Assembly: GCA_964467255.1 (NCBI GenBank)
Contig: CAYXPR010000001.1
Span: forward strand, 173,163-237,162
Reading direction: 5' to 3'
Origin: an uncultured Rickettsiales bacterium
Lineage (GTDB): Bacteria > Pseudomonadota > Alphaproteobacteria > Rickettsiales > RGZB01
DNA: 64,000 nucleotides
Position numbers and translations under genes: made by a program. The notes under the pieces were generated by a model. It saw nothing but the letters and a program-made list of their open reading frames with translations, ran no database searches and was not told the origin of the DNA. This document shows positions 7,002 to 47,665 of this stretch, one piece after another (position 1 is the stretch's first letter; each line of letters begins with the position of its first letter).

Positions 7002-7751
7002 TTAATCAATAATTGTGAATTTGCCTTTGCCTTCCACCACTTTGGCAAACTCGCCATGCGTGTGGATGGAAAACACAAGAATCGGTAATTTATTTTCACG
7101 CGAGAGCGATACAGCCGAAGCATCCATCACGTTCAAATCATTGTTCAGCACGTCTTTATAGCTGAGGCGGTCATAGCGCTTGGCTTTTTTATCCTTCTTC
7201 GGATCAGCGGAATAGACGCCATCCACTTGCGTGCCTTTGATCAGCGCATCGCAGCGCATTTCCACCGCACGCAGCGCAGCAGCCGTGTCAGTGGTGAAGA
7301 ACGGGTTGCCCGTGCCTGCAGCGAAAATCACCACGCGGCCTTTTTCCATGTGGCGGATGGCGCGGCGGCGAATGTAAGGTTCGCACACTGTCATCATAGG
7401 GATGGCGGAAAGTACGCGCGTGTTTACACCCATTTTTTCAAGCGTGTTTTGCAGCGCGAGGGAGTTGATAACCGTGGCCAGCATGCCCATGTAGTCAGCC
7501 GCTGCGCGGTCCATACCCGCTGCAGCACCGGCGATGCCGCGGTAAATATTGCCGCCGCCCACCACCAGGCATATCTCTACGCCCTTGCGGTTTACGTCTT
7601 TGATTTCATTGCAAATACGCAGGAGCGTTTCGAGGTCATGACCGTAACTGCCGGGGCCCATTAAGGCTTCGCCCGAAAGCTTCAGCAGCACGCGCTTATA
7701 TTTCAGCGCGCCCGATGCTGCTTTGGGTGTTACGACTTTGACCTTCGACAT
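7002..7751 (-). CDS. pyrH: UMP kinase
   Basis: [14 protein letters not shown] start, GGGNIYRG and [20 protein letters not shown] motifs. Confidence 0.94.
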
Positions 7752-7790
7752 GCCGGCTTCCTCCTACCGCCTTAAACAAGCGGTGTTTGA

Positions 7791-8717
7791 TTAGCGCTGG
7801 CCGACTGCGGCTGCCACTTCATCGGCAAAGTTCTTCTCTTCCTTCTGAACACCTTCGCCTAAGGCAAAACGCACAAAGCCAGTGACTTTCACCGGAGCGC
7901 CAATTTCCTTCGCAGCGTTTTCTACCGCTTCGCGGACTTTGGTTTTGCCGTCAATCACGAACAGCTGCTCCAGCAGTACCACTTCTTCATAGAACTTCCG
8001 GATGCGACCTTCAATCATCTTTTCAATGATGTTCTCTGGTTTGCCGGAAGCGCGGGCCTGATCCGCGAAAATTTCGCGTTCGCGCTGAACGAGAGACTGG
8101 TCGAGCGATTCAGTGTTCAGCGATTCTGGGCGGGCAGCAGCGATGTGCATCGCAATCTGCTTGCCGAGGTTCTGAAGTTTATTCTTGTCGCCCGTGGATT
8201 CCAGCGCCACCAGCACAGCAATTTTGCCCATGCCTTCTGCAATGGCGTTGTGCAGGTAGGTGGCAACAACGCCCGTGCCCACTTCCAAAAAGGCCGTGCG
8301 GCGCAGCGTGAGGTTTTCACCAATCGTGGCGATACCATCTACCACTAGCTCTTCTACTTTTTTGCCGTTAGCAGACTGAACTTTCAATGCTTCCAAATTA
8401 CCTTTCGCAACCAGTGCGCTGTTGGCAACGGTTTTCACCAGCTGCTGGAACTTTTCGTTTTTGGAAACGAAGTCAGTTTCAGAGTTGATTTCCACCAGTG
8501 CGGCAGCATTTTCACCTTTGCTGGCGATGCCCACGAGGCCTTCTGCTGCAACGCGTCCAGCCTTTTTTGCGGCACCGGAAATGCCTTTTTTACGCAGCCA
8601 GTCAACGGCGGCTTCAAAGTCACCCTTCGTTTCGGCGAGGGCCTTTTTGCAGTCCATCATCCCAGCACCGGTTTTTTCGCGCAGTTCTTTTACGATTGTT
8701 GCGGTAATTTCAGCCAT
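7791..8717 (-). CDS. tsf: Elongation factor Ts
   Basis: N-terminus [24 protein letters not shown] (UBA-like). Full-length 308 aa. Confidence 0.95.
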
Positions 8718-9685: not shown

Positions 9686-9746
9686 CGCAGAAAATGTGGA
9701 GCCTCTAAAAGAAGCACCGAATGGCTGGAAAGCCTTGTTTTCTGCG
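9686..9746 (-). promoter_or_regulatory. Candidate structured rpsB 5-prime leader (long-range 9-bp stem)
   Basis: On the rpsB-sense strand, CGCAGAAAA (complement of 9738..9746) pairs with TTTTCTGCG (complement of 9686..9694) and encloses 43 nt. The stem ends about 35 nt upstream of the rpsB ATG. Confidence 0.3.
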
Positions 9747-9924
9747 TGTGAAATGCCCCTGTAAGGGGTTCCCCGCTTTATGCAGGGAGCGCTTAATTAC
9801 CCCGTTTGGGGGTGTTTTGCAAGTAAAATCAGGGGGCTGTGGTGCGATTTACCCTTGGAGGGGTGGCCCACAATATAATATACTGCCCAGAGACAGCGAT
9901 TATAGGTGTAGATGGGGTAGTGGT

Positions 9925-10107
9925 ATGTTATTGATAATTCTGGCCGTTATGCTTGCGGTTGTGGTGGTGATGGTCATCGGCGTGGTGCTCATGGCCAAGG
10001 GCGGAAAAGCCAATGAAAAATATGGCAATAAACTGATGGTGGCCCGCGTGACACTGCAGGGCTTGGCGGTGTTGCTGCTGGGCATGATGTATTTCGTGAA
10101 GCATTAA
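9925..10107 (+). CDS. Twin-transmembrane-helix small protein (HIG1-like)
   Basis: The in-frame ATG at 9925 gives a 60-aa product, MLLIILAVMLAVVVVMVIGVVLMAKGGKANEKYGNKLMVARVTLQGLAVLLLGMMYFVKH. It has two hydrophobic helices joined by the MAKGG...NKLM..RV.LQG motif typical of bacterial HIG1-domain proteins. The 68 codons upstream in the track ORF (9721) look non-coding. Confidence 0.7.
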   Translation: MLLIILAVMLAVVVVMVIGVVLMAKGGKANEKYGNKLMVARVTLQGLAVLLLGMMYFVKH

Positions 10108-13414: not shown

Positions 13415-13423
13415 AAGAAGTAT

Positions 13424-13791
13424 CCAGATGGCCGGTAAGCCGGGTTTTGTCGAGGACAATCATTTATCTGGGATGGCTGTTACCAACCACCTCTAGCAGC
13501 CTACCCGAACAGCAAAGGACGGGGAAAAACCATCCGGCTTACGCCTGCTGTTCCTATTTGGCCTTGCTCCCGGCGGGGTTTTCCATGCCGCGACACATTA
13601 CTGCGCGCGCGGTGCGCTCTTACCGCACCTTTTCACCCTTACCTGCCTGCTTGCGCAAACGGGCGGTATATTTTCTGTGGCACTTTCCCTGGGGTCGCCC
13701 CCGGCGGGTGTTACCCGCCACCGTTTTTCCGTGGAGCCCGGACTTTCCTCTCGCTGCTTTAAGGGCAGAAAGCGATCATCTGGCCATCTGG
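13424..13791 (-). ncRNA. rnpB: RNase P RNA, bacterial type A
   Basis: The reverse strand reads CCAGATGGCCAG...GAGAGGAAAGTCCGGGCTCCACGG (universal P4 5-prime strand). It continues ...GGGTAGGCTGCT...GATAAATGATTGTCCTCGACAAAACCCGGCTTACCGGCCATCTGG (P4 3-prime strand and P1 closure). The 5-prime CCAGATGGCC pairs with the 3-prime GGCCATCTGG. End positions are good to a few nt. Confidence 0.95.
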
Positions 13792-15015: not shown

Positions 15016-15480
15016 ATGGCGCTCTTTTTATCGACATACGTCAATAAAATTGACAAGAAAGGCAGGGTCTCGGTGCCCGCGCAGTTCCGTGCTGTGCTCG
15101 CTAATGAAAATTTCCCCGGCATTATTGCCTACGCCTCATTTGTGAATCCATGTGTAGAAGCCTGCGGCATTCAGCGCATTGAGCGTATGGCCGAAAGCAT
15201 CGACAGCCTCGACCCGTTCTCAGATCAGCGCGACGCATTCGCTACCAGCATTCTAGGCGGTTCGGTGCAGTTGCCGTTTGACAGCGAAGGCCGCGTGGTG
15301 ATTCCAGAAGACCTGATGAAAGAATCTGGCCTTGTTGAGCAAGCTGTGTTCGTGGGCAAAGGCGCCACGTTTGAAATCTGGTCGCCGAAAACATTCGAGC
15401 AATATGCAGAAAAAGCACGCAACCTTGCTAAGCAAGAACGCGGATTGCTGCGTCTTTCGCCGAAAGGGGGTCAGTCATGA
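15016..15480 (+). CDS. mraZ: Transcriptional regulator MraZ
   Basis: FLSTYVNKIDKKGRVSVPAQFR plus a second SpoVT/AbrB-like half (FDSEGRVVIPEDL). First gene of the dcw cluster, with a 4-nt overlap onto rsmH. Confidence 0.93.
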   Translation: MALFLSTYVNKIDKKGRVSVPAQFRAVLANENFPGIIAYASFVNPCVEACGIQRIERMAESIDSLDPFSDQRDAFATSILGGSVQLPFDSEGRVVIPEDLMKESGLVEQAVFVGKGATFEIWSPKTFEQYAEKARNLAKQERGLLRLSPKGGQS

Positions 15481-16463: not shown

Positions 16464-16825
16464 TGATGAAAAAATTATTCAACGCTTTTGCCGCAGTGAA
16501 AAAGATGATTACCGAACGCAGCAACGCCGAGGAAGCCTTTGTACGCAAAGCACCGCGTTTGCAAGCCAGCAGTGTTCCCCCCACGCTTCTACTTCTGACC
16601 CAAAAGGTAGTAGAGGCGAGTTCCCAAGAGGTGGCCGCACAACCCGGAATGCACCCCATGCATCTCGGGGCGGCCACCCACCCCATCGCGCATTCGTGGG
16701 AACGTAAAGGAGTTTAGGTATGAAACGTAAAGCATTCGTTATTGGTACGGTCATGTTCTGCGCACTGGCGTTTGCGGTGTTCAAAGTGGAATATAAAGTG
16801 CGCTCGCTGCGCGCCGAGCTGGCGG
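16318..16825 (+). repeat. Tandem duplication: two ~254-bp units spanning the rsmH 3-prime end / ftsL 5-prime end junction
   Basis: 16318..16430 aligns without gaps to 16572..16684, including the perfect 24-mer GCGAGTTCCCAAGAGGTGGCCGCA at 16362 and 16616. The stop-SD-start junction AAGGAG(A)TTTAGnnATGAAA recurs at 16452..16471 and 16707..16725. Weaker similarity continues into the ORF84 N-terminus versus the FtsL N-terminus. Confidence 0.75.
16463..16717 (+). CDS. Hypothetical 84-aa ORF, chimeric product of the duplication (FtsL-N-like head without the TM, decayed RsmH-C-like tail)
   Basis: SD GAAGGAG lies 8 nt before the ATG at 16466. The tail VPPTLLLLTQKVVEASSQEVAAQPGMHPMHLGAATHP mirrors RsmH PPTFSLLSPKAVKASSQEVAANPRARSARLRAATR. 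The head AFAAVKKMITERSNAEEAFVRK resembles FtsL AFAVFKVEYKVRSLRAELAEVNR. It may be translated, or it may be a decaying remnant. Confidence 0.3.
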   Translation: MMKKLFNAFAAVKKMITERSNAEEAFVRKAPRLQASSVPPTLLLLTQKVVEASSQEVAAQPGMHPMHLGAATHPIAHSWERKGV

Positions 16826-17070
16826 AAGTGAATCGCCAGATTCTGCAAAATTATGAAGACATCCACGTGCTGAAAACCGAATGGGTGTATTTAAATAGTC
16901 CGCAGCGCGTGAAAGAACTTGCCAGCCGTTACTTGGATATGGATTATGTGAATTACGCGCAGCTGCGTGGTGTGGAAACCATCCCAGCGATGCCGATTAT
17001 GATCAGCCAAAACAAAGACACGGCGCCGGTTAAAGTGGCACGTGTATATGCCGGGGGTAATAGGGAGTGA
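16720..17070 (+). CDS. ftsL: Cell division protein FtsL
   Basis: 116 aa: short basic N-terminus, a single TM (FVIGTVMFCALAFAVF), then a coiled-coil region. Occupies the canonical position between rsmH and ftsI. Confidence 0.85.
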   Translation: MKRKAFVIGTVMFCALAFAVFKVEYKVRSLRAELAEVNRQILQNYEDIHVLKTEWVYLNSPQRVKELASRYLDMDYVNYAQLRGVETIPAMPIMISQNKDTAPVKVARVYAGGNRE

Positions 17071-30688: not shown

Positions 30689-31945
30689 ATGCGTAGCGAA
30701 ATTATTGCCATACTGGATATTGGTAGCTCCAAAATTGTGTGCCTGATTGCCGAGGTGGACCCCAGTGGCCGCCCGAAAATTATTGGTATTGGGCATCAGG
30801 TGTCGCAGGGCATCCGCGGTGGTATGGTGATTGATATCAAGCAGGCCGAAGGCGCGATTGTGGCTGCTGTGCATGCCGCTGAAAAAATGGCAGGTGACAC
30901 GATTGACCGTGTGTTTATCAATGTGTCTGCCACGAACCTCACCTCGCGCAACCTGAAGGTGGAAACGAATATTTCCGGCACACAGGTGACAGACCGCGAC
31001 ATTCAGGAAATCATCAGCGAAGGCATTCAGTATTTTTCCAAAGATGATTTGGAAGTGCTGCACCCCATTCCGATGGATTATCAACTTGACCACACCGAGG
31101 GTATCCGCGACCCGCGCGGTATGACGGGCGACAAGCTCAGCACCAACATGCATGTGATTACCTCTTCCACCACGGCCATCAAAAACTTGGCGAACTGTCT
31201 GGCGCGTTGCCATCTGGATATTGAGGATTGCGTGGCAGCACCCTATGCCTCGGGCCTTGCATGTTTAACGGAAGATGAAAAAAATCTGGGCGTGATTTTG
31301 CTCGACATTGGTGGCGGAAATACCTCCGTTGCGGTGTTCGCTAACGGCAATATTACCTACACGAACAACGTGCCGATTGGCGGCCAGCACATTACGCGGG
31401 ATATTGCGCGCGGCCTTTCGACCTCACTGCACGCCGCAGAGCGCATCAAGACATTATACGGTTCGGCGGTGAGCATGCCCGGTGAGCGGCAGGAAGTGGT
31501 AGATGTGCCGATTTACGATGAGAACGCCGAAGAAGGTGTGGATGACCCGCGGGAGACGATGCATGTGTCGCGTGCGGAATTGATGAGCATCATCCGCCCG
31601 CGTGTGGAAGAAATTCTGGAATTGGCAAAAAAGAAAATCCGCGCCGCAGGTGCTGCTGAAACAGAAGGTTCACGCATTGTGCTGACGGGCGGCACCGCGC
31701 AGCTGATGGGTATTAAAGATTTAGCGGGTGAAGTGTTCGGCCGGCAGGCGCGCATCGGCAAGCCGAGTGTGGTGGAAGGCATGGCGGAGTCCACCAAGGG
31801 CCCAGCCTTTACCTGTGCGATCGGTATGCTGAAATACGCGCTGATAAAAGATGGTTTGGCGCCGGAGAACTTTGGTTCAGGTCATTCGCTGTTTACGCGC
31901 GGGAAGATCGGCAAACTGGTACAGTGGTTCCAGCAGAATTTTTAA
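30689..31945 (+). CDS. ftsA: Cell division protein FtsA
   Basis: Actin-fold motifs (ILDIGSSKIVCLI, LLDIGGGNTSVAVF, VLTGGTAQLMGI). 418 aa. Confidence 0.94.
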   Translation: MRSEIIAILDIGSSKIVCLIAEVDPSGRPKIIGIGHQVSQGIRGGMVIDIKQAEGAIVAAVHAAEKMAGDTIDRVFINVSATNLTSRNLKVETNISGTQVTDRDIQEIISEGIQYFSKDDLEVLHPIPMDYQLDHTEGIRDPRGMTGDKLSTNMHVITSSTTAIKNLANCLARCHLDIEDCVAAPYASGLACLTEDEKNLGVILLDIGGGNTSVAVFANGNITYTNNVPIGGQHITRDIARGLSTSLHAAERIKTLYGSAVSMPGERQEVVDVPIYDENAEEGVDDPRETMHVSRAELMSIIRPRVEEILELAKKKIRAAGAAETEGSRIVLTGGTAQLMGIKDLAGEVFGRQARIGKPSVVEGMAESTKGPAFTCAIGMLKYALIKDGLAPENFGSGHSLFTRGKIGKLVQWFQQNF

Positions 31946-31954
31946 GGCTATAAG

Positions 31955-32320
31955 TTAGCCGCGGGAAAAACCACTGCTTTTTGCGGGGCCGCTAGGTTGT
32001 TGCGGCGTAGGGGCGCTGACCTCATTATTTGCAGAAGAGGATGTTCCAAGCGCAAAATCCCTAGAGCTAAATTCACCTTGCGCCAGCACGCTACCAAAGC
32101 GGCCTTGGCTTTGCGGCGCTTCCTGTGCGCTTCTTACTTCAGCGCCATACTCGGATGATGCAACGGGTTCATGGCTGTGCTTTGTCTTAACATCAATGTC
32201 TTTTTCCGGCGGGTCAGCATCTCCGGCAATGAGGCCTACGACCAAAGTAAAGGCCTGCACAGCCTTTGCAAAAGTGGTGTTCCCATTCATTTTTTCCATT
32301 ATGCCCATGGTTCTTGCCAT
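31955..32320 (-). CDS. Hypothetical small protein (121 aa): one hydrophobic segment plus a polar low-complexity tail; paralogue of the next ORF
   Basis: With its neighbour, the only long ORF in any frame of the ftsA-ftsZ gap. Shares TF.K...A...VV.GLI.GD with ORF 32328..32762. The start is ambiguous (M1/M5/M8/M11, weak SDs). Confidence 0.45.
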   Translation of the reverse strand: MARTMGIMEKMNGNTTFAKAVQAFTLVVGLIAGDADPPEKDIDVKTKHSHEPVASSEYGAEVRSAQEAPQSQGRFGSVLAQGEFSSRDFALGTSSSANNEVSAPTPQQPSGPAKSSGFSRG

Positions 32321-32327
32321 TCCATAA

Positions 32328-32762
32328 TTATATAGATCTGCCGCCGTCTTTTTTTACCTCTGTTGAAGGCGTTTCAGACTGCGGCCTTTTTAAAATATGA
32401 CTAAGGATGGACGCAAGATCAACTGCGCCATTCTCTTTCAGTCTACCAGCAAAAGGCCTTTCGATCACTAGCCCGTTCGCTTGGGATACGGAAAGCGGTT
32501 TGCTTTCAACCGCTTTCTCATCGTCTTCCTGTTTTAAGCCGTCTTTTTGGTTAGAGGCGTGTAAGATAGTTTTGGCAGTATCATCCCTTTGAGTCTGTGT
32601 TTCGCCTCGGGCAAGATCGCCTGGAATTAAACCCGCCACGACGATGAGTGCCGCTTTGGCCCATTTCATGAAGGTCTCCGAAAGGCCAAATCGTAAATCG
32701 TGCGTAACTTCGTCGCGTCCGGCGAGCTTGTTTTCAGGGGCTGTATTGGGTTCATCTGGCAT
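32328..32762 (-). CDS. Hypothetical small protein (144 aa): one hydrophobic segment plus a polar low-complexity tail; paralogue of the previous ORF
   Basis: SD AGAGG lies ~9 nt upstream of the ATG at 32762. Motif ETFMKWAKAALIVVAGLIPGD. No family recognised. Confidence 0.55.
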   Translation of the reverse strand: MPDEPNTAPENKLAGRDEVTHDLRFGLSETFMKWAKAALIVVAGLIPGDLARGETQTQRDDTAKTILHASNQKDGLKQEDDEKAVESKPLSVSQANGLVIERPFAGRLKENGAVDLASILSHILKRPQSETPSTEVKKDGGRSI

Positions 32763-32797
32763 AAAAATACCTCTAGTTACAGACTATCGCAGATTTG

Positions 32798-32812
32798 TTA
32801 ATAAAACCTTAA
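32798..32812. promoter_or_regulatory. Candidate CtrA box (TTAA-N7-TTAA)
   Basis: TTAAtaaaaccTTAA is an exact match to the spacing and half-sites of the CtrA consensus. It sits in the divergent region between ORF144 and ftsZ. The context is AT-rich, so a chance match is possible. Confidence 0.35.
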
Positions 32813-32922
32813 TCCAGACGTAGACAGAGAAGAAAAAGCCATTGTAATTTGGCGCGGAGTGGTATCGAAATGGGCGGTTTTGCAGGGCAAAATGAGGCCG
32901 CCATTAAAAGGCGTTATGTGGT

Positions 32923-32960
32923 ATATTGTGGTTGCGGCGGCCACAATATGTTGATATAAA
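32923..32960 (+). promoter_or_regulatory. 9-bp inverted repeat overlapping a putative ftsZ promoter
   Basis: ATATTGTGG (32923..32931) and CCACAATAT (32941..32949) are separated by 9 nt. A possible -35 TTGCGG (32932..32937) and -10 TATAAA (32955..32960) have a 17-nt spacer, ~50 bp upstream of the ftsZ ATG. Confidence 0.3.
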
Positions 32961-33009
32961 TGGCTATTACTCGTTTATTTAACCCCCTGCATGTAGCTAA
33001 GGAGCGCAC

Positions 33010-34596
33010 ATGACCATTAACCTGCAACTGCCCAAAAAACCCTACCTGAAACCCTCAATCACCGTATTTGGGGTGGGTGGCGCAGGTGGTAATGCTGTGA
33101 ATAATATGATTTCCGCCCGTTTAGAGGGTGTGAATTTCGTGATTGCGAATACGGACGCGCAGGCGGTCGAACATTCGCTTTCCGAGCAGCGCATTCAGCT
33201 GGGTGAAAGCATTACGCAGGGTTTGGGTGCCGGTTCTTACCCAGAAGTGGGCCGCGCAGCGGCGGAGGAATCCACCGAAGAAGTATTAGATCATCTGCAA
33301 GGCAGCAACATGGTGTTCGTGACCGCCGGTATGGGCGGTGGTACGGGTACGGGTGCTGCGCCGGTGGTGGCGCGTCTTGCACGTGAGCAGGGCATCCTGA
33401 CGGTAGCTGTGGTGACCAAGCCATTCCATTTTGAAGGCTCGCACCGTATGCGTGTGGCCGAGCAGGGCATCGAAGAATTGCAGAAATATGTAGATACGCT
33501 GATTATCATTCCGAACCAGAATTTGTTCCGTGTGGCTGATAAAAGCACCACATTCAAAGATGCATTCAAAATGGCCGATGACGTGCTGCGCCAAGGTGTG
33601 CAGGGCATTACGGACCTGATGGTGATGCCGGGTCTTATCAACCTTGATTTTGCTGACATTCGCAGTGTGATGAGTGAAATGGGCAAAGCCATGATGGGCA
33701 CCGGTCAAGCGCAGGGCGATGGCCGTGCGACGCAGGCTGCCGAAGCTGCTATTTCCAACCCGCTGCTGGATAATGTTTCAATGAAAGGCGCCAAAGGCGT
33801 GCTCATTAATATTACGGGCGGTGCCGACCTGACGCTGTTTGAAGTGGATGAAGCCGCAAACCGCATCCGTGACGAAGTCGACCCTGATGCAAACATCATT
33901 TTCGGCTCTACGTTTGATGAAACACTGGAAGGCTCCATCCGTGTGTCGGTGGTGGCAACCGGTATTGAAAACGAAGTGGGCTATCAGCGCCGCGATACGC
34001 ACAAAGCCTCTGCGCCACAACAGCAGTCGCGCCGTGTAGAAACGCATGCCGTAGCCGCGCAGGATATATATGAAGAAGAAGCGCCCGCGCAGGCAATCCC
34101 TACGATTCGCCTGAAATCCGCCCGCCCGACAGAAGATCAGGTGAGCCCGATTGCTGCGAGCGTGCGTGACATTATTAAAGGTGCTGCACAGGATGAAGAT
34201 GAATCGGTGTTTATTGCACCGGAAGTGCTTGAGCCGGAAGAAATTCCAGTCGCGCAGTATCGTGCTACCAGCCCTGCGCCGCGTGCGCCGGAAGCAGATT
34301 CCCGCGCTGCTGCAGGCATGAAAGCAGAGGGCCGCCGTTTGAATATTGCGCCTGCTGTGACCCATGCTGATGTGCAGTCATCTGAAGATAATGACGCGGG
34401 GAGGCGCGGCCGCGGCTTCCCTTTTTTCGGTTTCGGAAATAGCCGCAGGGACGAAGTAGACGCACCACGCGAATATGAGCGTGCAGCGGTTTCTTCCTCG
34501 GTTAGCGTGAGCGAAAAATCCCGCGAGGAAGACCTTTTTGCCCGCGATGATTTAGATATTCCGGCGTATCTGCGCCGCACGAAACCCGCTAATTAA
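33010..34596 (+). CDS. ftsZ: Cell division GTPase FtsZ (long disordered linker, conserved C-terminal peptide)
   Basis: [11 protein letters not shown] and [10 protein letters not shown] tubulin signature. The linker of roughly 170 residues is low-complexity. The C-terminal [11 protein letters not shown] peptide is present. Confidence 0.96.
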
Positions 34597-47236: not shown

Positions 47237-47665
47237 TTATTTTCCTTTTTCAACAGTCGTGGAGCGGCTGAAGAAATTATGCAAGGTTTGCCCGGAAAGC
47301 AAGCCGAGAAAGCCATAGAGGCCCGAGACCAAGAAATAAGCGGCAATGCCGGTGCGGAGTGCGCCCTGCGGAACGTTCAGCCCCAGCGCGGTGAAACCCT
47401 GGTGTGCAAGCAGCGCGAAGAAGAAATGTCCGACAAGGAACAGAGACGTGCCAATCCATGCGATTTTACGCTCCATGCGGAGGCCCACGACCAGTGCTTC
47501 AGTGATACCCATCATGACAATAAAAGGAAGGCAGCGCAGCACAATGCCAAGAATGGGGGAGTCCTGAAGAAAGGAGGTTCCGGCAATCAGCAGTGCCAGC
47601 ACCACGAATAAGATAGAGTCAGCGTGCAGCACCGTGTAGGTTTTTTTAATCGGTCTTCCGCCCAT
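47237..47665 (-). CDS. Hypothetical integral membrane protein (about four TM helices)
   Basis: 142 aa, strongly hydrophobic, no family recognised. The start overlaps the xerD 3-prime end by 20 nt, so an internal start is possible. Confidence 0.5.
   Translation of the reverse strand: MGGRPIKKTYTVLHADSILFVVLALLIAGTSFLQDSPILGIVLRCLPFIVMMGITEALVVGLRMERKIAWIGTSLFLVGHFFFALLAHQGFTALGLNVPQGALRTGIAAYFLVSGLYGFLGLLSGQTLHNFFSRSTTVEKGK

Follow-up and report, generated by a model that had tools for sequence, protein, structure and literature searches.

The ftsA and ftsZ genes are usually adjacent across bacteria as part of the conserved gene order of the dcw (division and cell wall) cluster, and the pair is normally taken as a fixed unit, the co-transcription of which helps to set the FtsA:FtsZ ratio. 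Two arrangements have been described in Alphaproteobacteria. In Caulobacter crescentus, a promoter region lies directly before ftsZ, which thus has its own regulated promoter, and expression of the gene is separable from that of ftsQ/ftsA (PMC3708114). The four genes ddl-ftsQ-ftsA-ftsZ of Agrobacterium tumefaciens are transcribed together, and the 93 bp that separate ftsA from ftsZ gave no promoter activity when assayed with a reporter (bioRxiv 10.64898/2026.05.29.728657). Here, we analysed a stretch of 64,000 nucleotides (the window) from contig CAYXPR010000001.1 of an uncultured Rickettsiales bacterium, in which ftsA and ftsZ are separated by a gap of 1064 bp (31946..33009) carrying two open reading frames (ORFs) on the opposite strand. 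The explanation that best accounts for this cassette, to which we assign a probability of about 0.62, is that a lineage-specific insertion of approximately 0.9–1 kb, carrying an opposite-strand two-gene orphan operon, entered between the ftsA stop codon and a conserved, putative ftsZ promoter.

The dcw gene order of the window is canonical (mraZ...ddl-ftsQ-ftsA-ftsZ), with Pfam matches to MraZ, RsmH, MurG, MurC, MurB, Ddl, FtsQ, FtsA and FtsZ, except that ftsA is not directly followed by ftsZ. Between 15016 and 31945, every long ORF lies on the plus strand, and the packing is tight. In the gap, the raw sequence and the list of ORFs in all six frames agree on two tandem minus-strand ORFs of 121 and 144 amino acids (aa), separated by 7 nt (here named ORF121 and ORF144; the coordinates of all features are collected in Table 1), while no other ORF above 61 aa appears in the six-frame list for 31946..33009. 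ORF121 and ftsA are convergent, with 9 bp between their stop codons; a terminator scan found no intrinsic-terminator-like site between these stops, and folding of the 81-nt junction showed no significant gain over shuffled sequences on either strand (z values of -1.3 and -1.5). The original prediction, which had been made from the sequence letters, is thereby borne out with regard to the coordinates and strands of the two ORFs, their status as the only long ORFs in the gap, the tightly packed plus-strand run from mraZ to the ftsA stop (on which the ORF list and Pfam agree) and the lack of a hairpin or terminator between the convergent stops (on which the scan and the shuffle folding agree). 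The insert region was 100% identical on three independently assembled contigs (SRR12816580, SRR12816581 and SRR12816583) and is therefore not an assembly artefact; both ORFs are also predicted by gene callers on these contigs. A search of Rfam with positions 31500..33300 gave no structured RNA match at E≤1.

To place the interruption in context, relatives were found by an FtsA search and their contigs were compared, yielding 10 lineages including that of the window (with L004, L007 and L008 counted once). These three constitute the sister lineage, L004 being a metagenome-assembled genome from Lake Mendota ('Rickettsiales bacterium') and L007 and L008 further assemblies. Its FtsA is 99% identical to that of the window at the amino acid level and approximately 90% at the nucleotide level, the ftsA codon differences comprising 114 synonymous and 3 non-synonymous changes, and its FtsZ is near-identical. 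In all three assemblies of the sister lineage the ftsA–ftsZ spacer is 118 bp long and the cassette is absent. The window and L004 are colinear over 13 kb at 87–90% nucleotide identity, and the insert is the sole large indel in this region. The blastn alignment with L004 ends at 31944, in the ftsA stop codon, and restarts at 32941, such that 31945..32940 of the window stands in place of 53 bp in L004; by eye, the similarity can be followed upstream to approximately 32912. On this basis approximately 960 bp in the window take the place of some 14–50 bp of native spacer, with homology restarting about 100 bp before ftsZ. The GC content of the insert is 0.487 against 0.530 for the window.

Short spacers were also observed in more distant lineages, namely L006 (FtsA 76% identical; approximately 200 bp), L009 (65%; 118 bp), L012 (57%; 144 bp), L014 (58%; 154 bp), L016 (56%; 153 bp) and L018 (55%; 96 bp), and none of the nine other lineages, sister lineage included, has the cassette. 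In a neighbour-joining tree of FtsA, the window and L004/L007 are sisters; L006, L009 and L005 come next, and L012/L014 fall outside. These sequence comparisons support the view that the cassette is a lineage-specific accessory insertion gained at this tip of the tree, and not conserved division machinery. Of the two possibilities that had been put forward originally, a recent insertion is the one that agrees with the 118-bp, cassette-free spacer of the sister lineage and with the similarly uninterrupted junctions of L006, L009, L012, L014, L016 and L018; the synteny comparison that had been proposed to decide the matter found ftsA and ftsZ short-spaced in most relatives and homologues of the two ORFs nowhere.

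Two further lineages depart from strict ftsA–ftsZ adjacency. L005 (RGZB01000007.1, Proteobacteria bacterium WBA_2_307; FtsA 64% identical) has a 1322-bp gap (7258..8579) with one minus-strand ORF of 375 aa (ORF375). Its stop codon lies 6 bp away from that of ftsA, and its start 188 bp before ftsZ. In NCBI this gene is annotated as a hypothetical protein (NDF11697.1) with a 349-aa model that starts at M27 and leaves out the hydrophobic N-terminus, and no match to it was found in Pfam, PHROG or PADLOC. ORF375 resembles the window cassette in its site, its minus-strand orientation, a stop less than 10 bp from that of ftsA and the presence of the same ftsZ-proximal block downstream (see below), and it shares with the window ORFs an acidic, low-complexity composition; it differs in being a single ORF of 375 (or 349) aa rather than two, and in having no significant sequence similarity to them.

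The common layout of the two loci (minus strand, stop codon 6–9 bp away from that of ftsA, start on the upstream side of the ftsZ block), together with the hydrophobic N-terminus and acidic low-complexity body of the window ORFs and ORF375, might alternatively suggest a fast-evolving gene present since the ancestor of the window and L005, of which ORF375 would be the orthologue and which would have been lost in L004/L007, L006 and L009. We regard this as very improbable. Homology of the window ORFs to ORF375 was rejected, as the best BLASTP E values were 8 and 0.038 and involved low-complexity stretches; the FtsA tree would require one gain and at least three losses rather than two gains; and the NCBI model of the L005 gene omits the very N-terminus on which the resemblance draws. 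In addition, L004 and L009 both have a 118-bp spacer, which suggests that the short spacer is ancestral and which likewise counts against an old gene at this position. As judged from the FtsA tree, the L005 insertion arose independently of that in the window.

In L017 (2.1-Mb contig ctg321779_81x_c, 4279..5638; FtsA 55% identical), an HK97-type Phage_capsid gene is located 151 bp after ftsA, and there is no ftsZ near ftsA. The ftsQ gene of this lineage is preceded by a CNNM/CorC gene where ddl would be expected, and its dcw cluster is fragmented. Strict ftsA–ftsZ adjacency is consequently departed from in three of the 10 lineages (window, L005 and L017). Judged by these sequences, the junction is plastic in the clade, because L005 holds an unrelated ORF there and L017 has no ftsZ after ftsA. 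While the interruption itself stands, the description of the site as the most conserved junction of the dcw cluster was thus overstated for this clade, in which the junction is occupied or broken in the three lineages named.

Extensive homology searches were performed with both ORFs, and these retrieved only self-matches among approximately 15 billion proteins. A word-seeded search of 5.8 billion clusters returned self only for either ORF, as did an exhaustive phmmer search of ORF144 against 1.84 billion representatives, and the 90% clusters of ORF144 and ORF121 have one member each. Pfam and NCBIfam gave nothing at E≤1 for either ORF, with the exception of a choice_anch_I match that stayed below threshold (13.5 bits, the cutoff being 32), and neither ORF matched an entry in PHROGs, PADLOC or, by sequence, the PDB. 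No homologue was detected in a JGI metagenome scan with ORF144 or in IMG/VR scans with both ORFs. At the nucleotide level, the insert had no blastn match among plasmids and phages, and tblastn and blastn found none in the rest of the window or in any of the compared loci. Specifically, divisome and Z-ring regulator families (ZipA, ZapA-D, FzlA/C, SidA/DidA, MipZ and others) were not matched in Pfam, NCBIfam or the PDB, nor were toxin, antitoxin or defence families in PADLOC, Pfam or NCBIfam. The homology check that had been suggested for the two proteins therefore ended with no homologue or family found.

These searches bear directly on the other possibility raised at the outset, i.e. that the ORFs form a lineage-specific division-linked module, the proteins of which would modulate the Z-ring or septal envelope from a position that is itself functional. 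Such a role would be in keeping with the position, with a candidate cassette promoter divergent from that of ftsZ and with the opposite-strand ORF that L005 has at the same spot; furthermore, a membrane anchor followed by a disordered linker is a common architecture among Z-ring tethers (ZipA type). However, the sister lineage lacks the cassette, despite 99% identity in FtsA and near-identity in FtsZ, and so do eight other lineages; no similarity to a division family was found in Pfam or NCBIfam, the L005 ORF is not homologous, and no fold is predicted for either product. As the closest relatives divide without these ORFs, we do not retain the division-linked module and give it very little chance of being correct.

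Alignment of the region upstream of ftsZ from the window, L004, L007, L009, L005 and L006 (and, more weakly or in part, from L012 and L014) identified a conserved block with the pattern ATGTGGTAT, TTGC(G/A)N, 17 nt and TG-n-TATA(A/G)N, which in the window is positioned approximately 50 nt before the AAGGAG Shine-Dalgarno sequence and the ATG of ftsZ. The block is conserved in relatives with and without insertions, and we infer that it represents a promoter. Both the window and the L005 insertions are located downstream of the ftsA stop and upstream of this block, and the stretch between these two elements is the only short dispensable DNA in the native spacer. Since the insertion lies upstream of the conserved promoter-like block, ftsZ probably retains its own promoter; the earlier contention that ftsZ would have to rely on signals within 32763..33009 is indirectly upheld by the presence of the block in that interval. 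The putative -35 element TTGCGG is flanked by an inverted repeat with perfectly matching 9-bp arms, ATATTGTGG (32923..32931) and CCACAATAT (32941..32949), of which L006, but not L004, has a 9/10 version; the repeat could constitute an operator.

With respect to the described systems, the ftsZ upstream region of the clade looks nearer to the Caulobacter than to the A. tumefaciens arrangement. The window resembles C. crescentus in the placement of the element directly before ftsZ and in the prospect of expression separable from ftsQ/ftsA, although what the window offers is a promoter-like block only, and the Caulobacter promoter differs in its sites for DnaA and CtrA and in its methylation motif, CGACTC. 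In Caulobacter, ftsA and ftsZ are not known to be separated by a gene. Control of ftsZ of the Caulobacter type through GANTC or CGACTC was ruled out, as no GANTC site occurs in 32763..33009. GANTC is depleted over the window as a whole (126 sites observed versus 168.7±12 in shuffles, with 100 of 100 shuffles having at least 126), and CcrM-type methylation may be a candidate in this organism. Agrobacterium tumefaciens shares with the relatives examined here the distal end of an alphaproteobacterial dcw cluster and a short ftsA–ftsZ spacer (93 bp versus 96 to approximately 200 bp). It is unlike the window in that its spacer showed no promoter activity, where the window has a conserved candidate promoter close to ftsZ; a convergent cassette placed in the A. 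tumefaciens spacer would be predicted to shut off ftsZ expression.

From these observations a model of expression can be proposed. The cassette would be transcribed from its own putative sigma-70-like promoter, divergent from that of ftsZ; ORF144 would be translated from a Shine-Dalgarno site, and ORF121 by coupling to ORF144, because its start follows the ORF144 stop by 7 nt. An N-terminal hydrophobic segment of the Sec type would serve to export or anchor the products, which would act as accessory envelope or secreted proteins, not as divisome parts. Read-through from ftsQ/ftsA would meet the convergent cassette, with a terminator on neither side, which would lead to collision and mutual antisense RNA; ftsZ would therefore probably be expressed mainly from its own retained promoter. 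Correspondingly, we propose that the insertion is tolerated at this spot because ftsZ would run on its own promoter.

Several lines of evidence favour the view that the two ORFs are genes. When the 960-bp insert was shuffled 5000 times with its dinucleotides preserved, a same-strand, non-overlapping pair of ORFs of at least 144 and at least 117 aa arose with a frequency of 0.0004. For each ORF, the called frame had a higher codon score than any of the other five. The per-codon coding score of ORF144 (0.145) exceeded that of every one of the 61 shadow ORFs of comparable length, which averaged -0.22 and reached 0.094 at most, and the ORF144 GC contents at the first and second codon positions (GC1/GC2; 0.586/0.421) match those of host coding sequence (0.597/0.405). 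At the third position (GC3), the values for the two ORFs (0.448 and 0.475) fall below those of all 43 long host genes (minimum 0.538) and within the lowest 0.7% of 130-codon host windows, a composition that fits a foreign or very young origin. ORF144 has two candidate ribosome-binding sites, AGAGG situated 7 nt before M1 and GGAGA situated 5 nt before the alternative start M32. A single split gene was ruled out, because the reading frames of the two ORFs differ and a separate hydrophobic segment is present at the N-terminus of each. Taken together, the sequence features make it probable that both ORFs are functional genes.

Each predicted product has, close to its N-terminus, a positively charged region followed by a hydrophobic core of 10–14 residues and then G-D-(L)-A, which corresponds to the Sec-type layout of a positive n-region and an h-region of 7–15 residues. 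In ORF121, K10 and K19 are followed by AVQAFTLVVGLIAG, with the hydrophobic stretch AFTLVVGLIAG; in ORF144, K33 and K36 precede the stretch AALIVVAGLI, and translation from M32 would yield a protein beginning MKWAKAALIVVAGLIPGDLA, a classical Sec signal layout. The c-region of ORF121 (A-G-D-A|D), with G at -3 and A at -1, fits the AxA rule. As in Sec signal-peptide proteins, both products combine a positive n-region, a hydrophobic core and a small residue (Ala) at -1; neither has a lipobox Cys. The Kyte-Doolittle maxima are 2.31 over 11 residues and 1.43 over 19 for ORF121, and 2.58 and 1.32, respectively, for ORF144; 19-residue values of 1.3–1.4 (below 1.6) are a better fit to a signal peptide than to a transmembrane helix. 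The two N-termini share the motif TF.K...A..VV.GLI.GD (11 of 20 identities, E=0.004), while the remainder of both proteins is acidic, Cys-free and poor in aromatic residues. AlphaFold2 (AF2), run without an alignment, predicted no fold for either product and only one long helix in each, which coincides with the hydrophobic segment: helix 29-44 in ORF144 (mean predicted local distance difference test (pLDDT) score of 51, with short helices at 105-110 and 116-124) and helix 16-31 in ORF121 (mean pLDDT 59, with a 4-residue helix at 86-89). The products are most likely small, disordered orphan accessory proteins that would be exported or anchored at the N-terminus.

A number of observations weigh against the insertion-and-operon account and are considered together here. 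The coding score of ORF121 (0.07) lies inside the shadow-ORF range, the scores of both ORFs are at or below that of the lowest host gene (0.12; host 0.447±0.10), and no orthologues were found. ORF121 is without a clear Shine-Dalgarno sequence, and sigma-70-like sites are no commoner in the region than in shuffles, because of which the cassette promoter is only a candidate. Signal-peptide status was judged by eye and from hydropathy; in ORF144 the c-region G-D-L-A|R places a disfavoured D at -3, and translation from M1 would put an acidic 29-residue extension before the segment. No hallmark of an insertion mechanism (target-site duplication, terminal inverted repeats, integrase or tRNA) was found at the insert, and a gain after the L006 split followed by loss in the sister lineage is an alternative, albeit less parsimonious, to a gain at the tip.

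Some of these points, along with the singleton status of both ORFs among approximately 15 billion proteins, would also be expected if the insert were non-coding or decaying and the ORFs were spurious or remnants of a degraded foreign gene. The coding scores are far below those of the host, with that of ORF121 under the shadow-ORF maximum, GC3 is not host-like, and the low-complexity, disordered sequences have no AF2 fold. Conversely, such an insert would not readily account for the length of the ORF pair (P≈0.0004), the top rank of the called frame in both cases, the host-like GC1 and GC2 of ORF144, the Shine-Dalgarno-like sites, the 7-nt spacing or the N-terminal architecture common to both products. 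A non-coding or decaying insert is accordingly considered unlikely, and an insertion carrying an expressed pair of orphan genes remains the preferred explanation.

As to the origin of the insert, no mobile-element genes (transposase, integrase or phage) were identified by Pfam or PHROGs, and inspection of the boundaries at 31946 and approximately 32905 revealed neither terminal inverted repeats nor a target-site duplication, but short scattered repeats only. Positions 32828..32866 are similar to the L006 native spacer immediately 5' of the conserved block (P≈0.007 without correction for six comparisons), and a direct repeat of 12 nt, identical at 11/12 positions, connects 31996..32007, on the left of the insert, with 32928..32939 in the ftsZ promoter block. 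These are weak hints that the spacer may have been duplicated at insertion and that part of the cassette promoter region may be native spacer; alignments of the left flank with spacers were not significant (P of 0.1–0.7), and some 850 bp of the insert show no similarity to any spacer.

The same data raise the question of whether insertions in this clade land recurrently at one site, the short gap that separates the ftsA stop from the ftsZ promoter, where new genes would be captured or would arise from duplicated spacer. The occurrence of two independent, unrelated insertions at an identical position and in an identical orientation among 10 lineages would fit such a site, as would the L006-like segment, the direct repeat and the fact that the ORFs are singletons with intermediate coding scores. 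Yet there are two cases only, the repeat and spacer similarities are weak, with nothing significant at the left flank, no recombination site or mobile-element feature was found, and most of the insert is unlike any spacer; a recurrent landing site is hence improbable. An equally improbable extension is that the junction acts as an orientation-constrained landing pad in this Rickettsiales-like clade, at which genes for orphan exported proteins would be captured or even originate de novo from duplicated spacer and, by their convergence on ftsA with no terminator, would insulate ftsZ from ftsQ/ftsA read-through and rewire the setting of the FtsA:FtsZ ratio.

A single lineage-specific insertion thus remains favoured, and it shares many characteristics with strain- or species-specific orphan-gene islets (small accessory ORFan insertions in regions of conserved synteny), which are likewise below 1 kb, absent from the sister lineage, atypical in GC3 and without homologues, and encode short disordered or membrane-associated products. 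It differs from the usual islets in its location inside the dcw cluster at the ftsA–ftsZ boundary and in that no integrase, tRNA or repeat boundary was found. Most likely, the insert is an accessory islet of an ordinary kind, and its place is unusual but evidently permissive. Nothing points to a new mechanism, and no link of the products to division was seen. The window, L005 and L017 suggest that the ftsA–ftsZ junction is interruptible when ftsZ has its own promoter, which is of relevance to the organisation of division-gene expression in little-studied uncultured Alphaproteobacteria. The two ORFs additionally offer clear-cut cases of orphan genes that are foreign or very young, present in this lineage and absent from its sister at approximately 90% nucleotide identity.

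Table 1. Positions of the ftsA–ftsZ interruption and associated features in the window.
Feature	Coordinates	Strand	Remarks
mraZ	15016..15480	+	Pfam match
ftsA	30689..31945	+	418 aa; end of the co-directional dcw run; Pfam FtsA, SHS2_FTSA
Lineage-specific inserted DNA	31946..32905		Left edge exact at the ftsA stop; right edge within 32827..32911
ORF121	31955..32320	-	121 aa from M1; gene callers start at M5 (32308), giving 117 aa; distal cassette gene
ORF121 residues 15-33	32222..32278	-	TTFAKAVQAFTLVVGLIAG then DA; signal-peptide-like or anchor segment
ORF144	32328..32762	-	144 aa; alternative start M32 at 32669, giving 113 aa; promoter-proximal cassette gene
ORF144 residues 30-48	32619..32675	-	TFMKWAKAALIVVAGLIPG then DLA; signal-peptide-like or anchor segment
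Candidate sigma-70-like promoter	32841..32868	-	TCGATA-16-TACAAT; approximately 72 nt upstream of the ORF144 ATG; consensus scan 9/12
Conserved ftsZ-proximal block (putative promoter)	32912..32960	+	ATGTGGTAT; -35 TTGCGG (32932..32937), 17-nt spacer, extended -10 TGaTATAAA (32952..32960)
ftsZ Shine-Dalgarno sequence	32999..33004	+	AAGGAG; 5 nt before the ATG; direct sequence reading
ftsZ	33010..34596	+	528 aa; Pfam Tubulin, FtsZ_C

Other features of the window were also recorded. No tRNA genes were found in the 64 kb. A bacterial RNase P class A RNA (311 bits) is encoded upstream of the dcw cluster at 13420..13791 on the minus strand, and a small plus-strand ORF at 16720..17070 occupies the ftsL position of the cluster, with no Pfam match and a host-like codon score of 0.47. 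Elsewhere, a minus-strand ORF of 142 aa (47237..47665) has no Pfam match and a codon score of 0.27, and a plus-strand ORF of 128 aa (9721..10107) contains a HIG_1_N (hypoxia-induced protein) domain (E=6e-5) and has a low codon score of 0.04.

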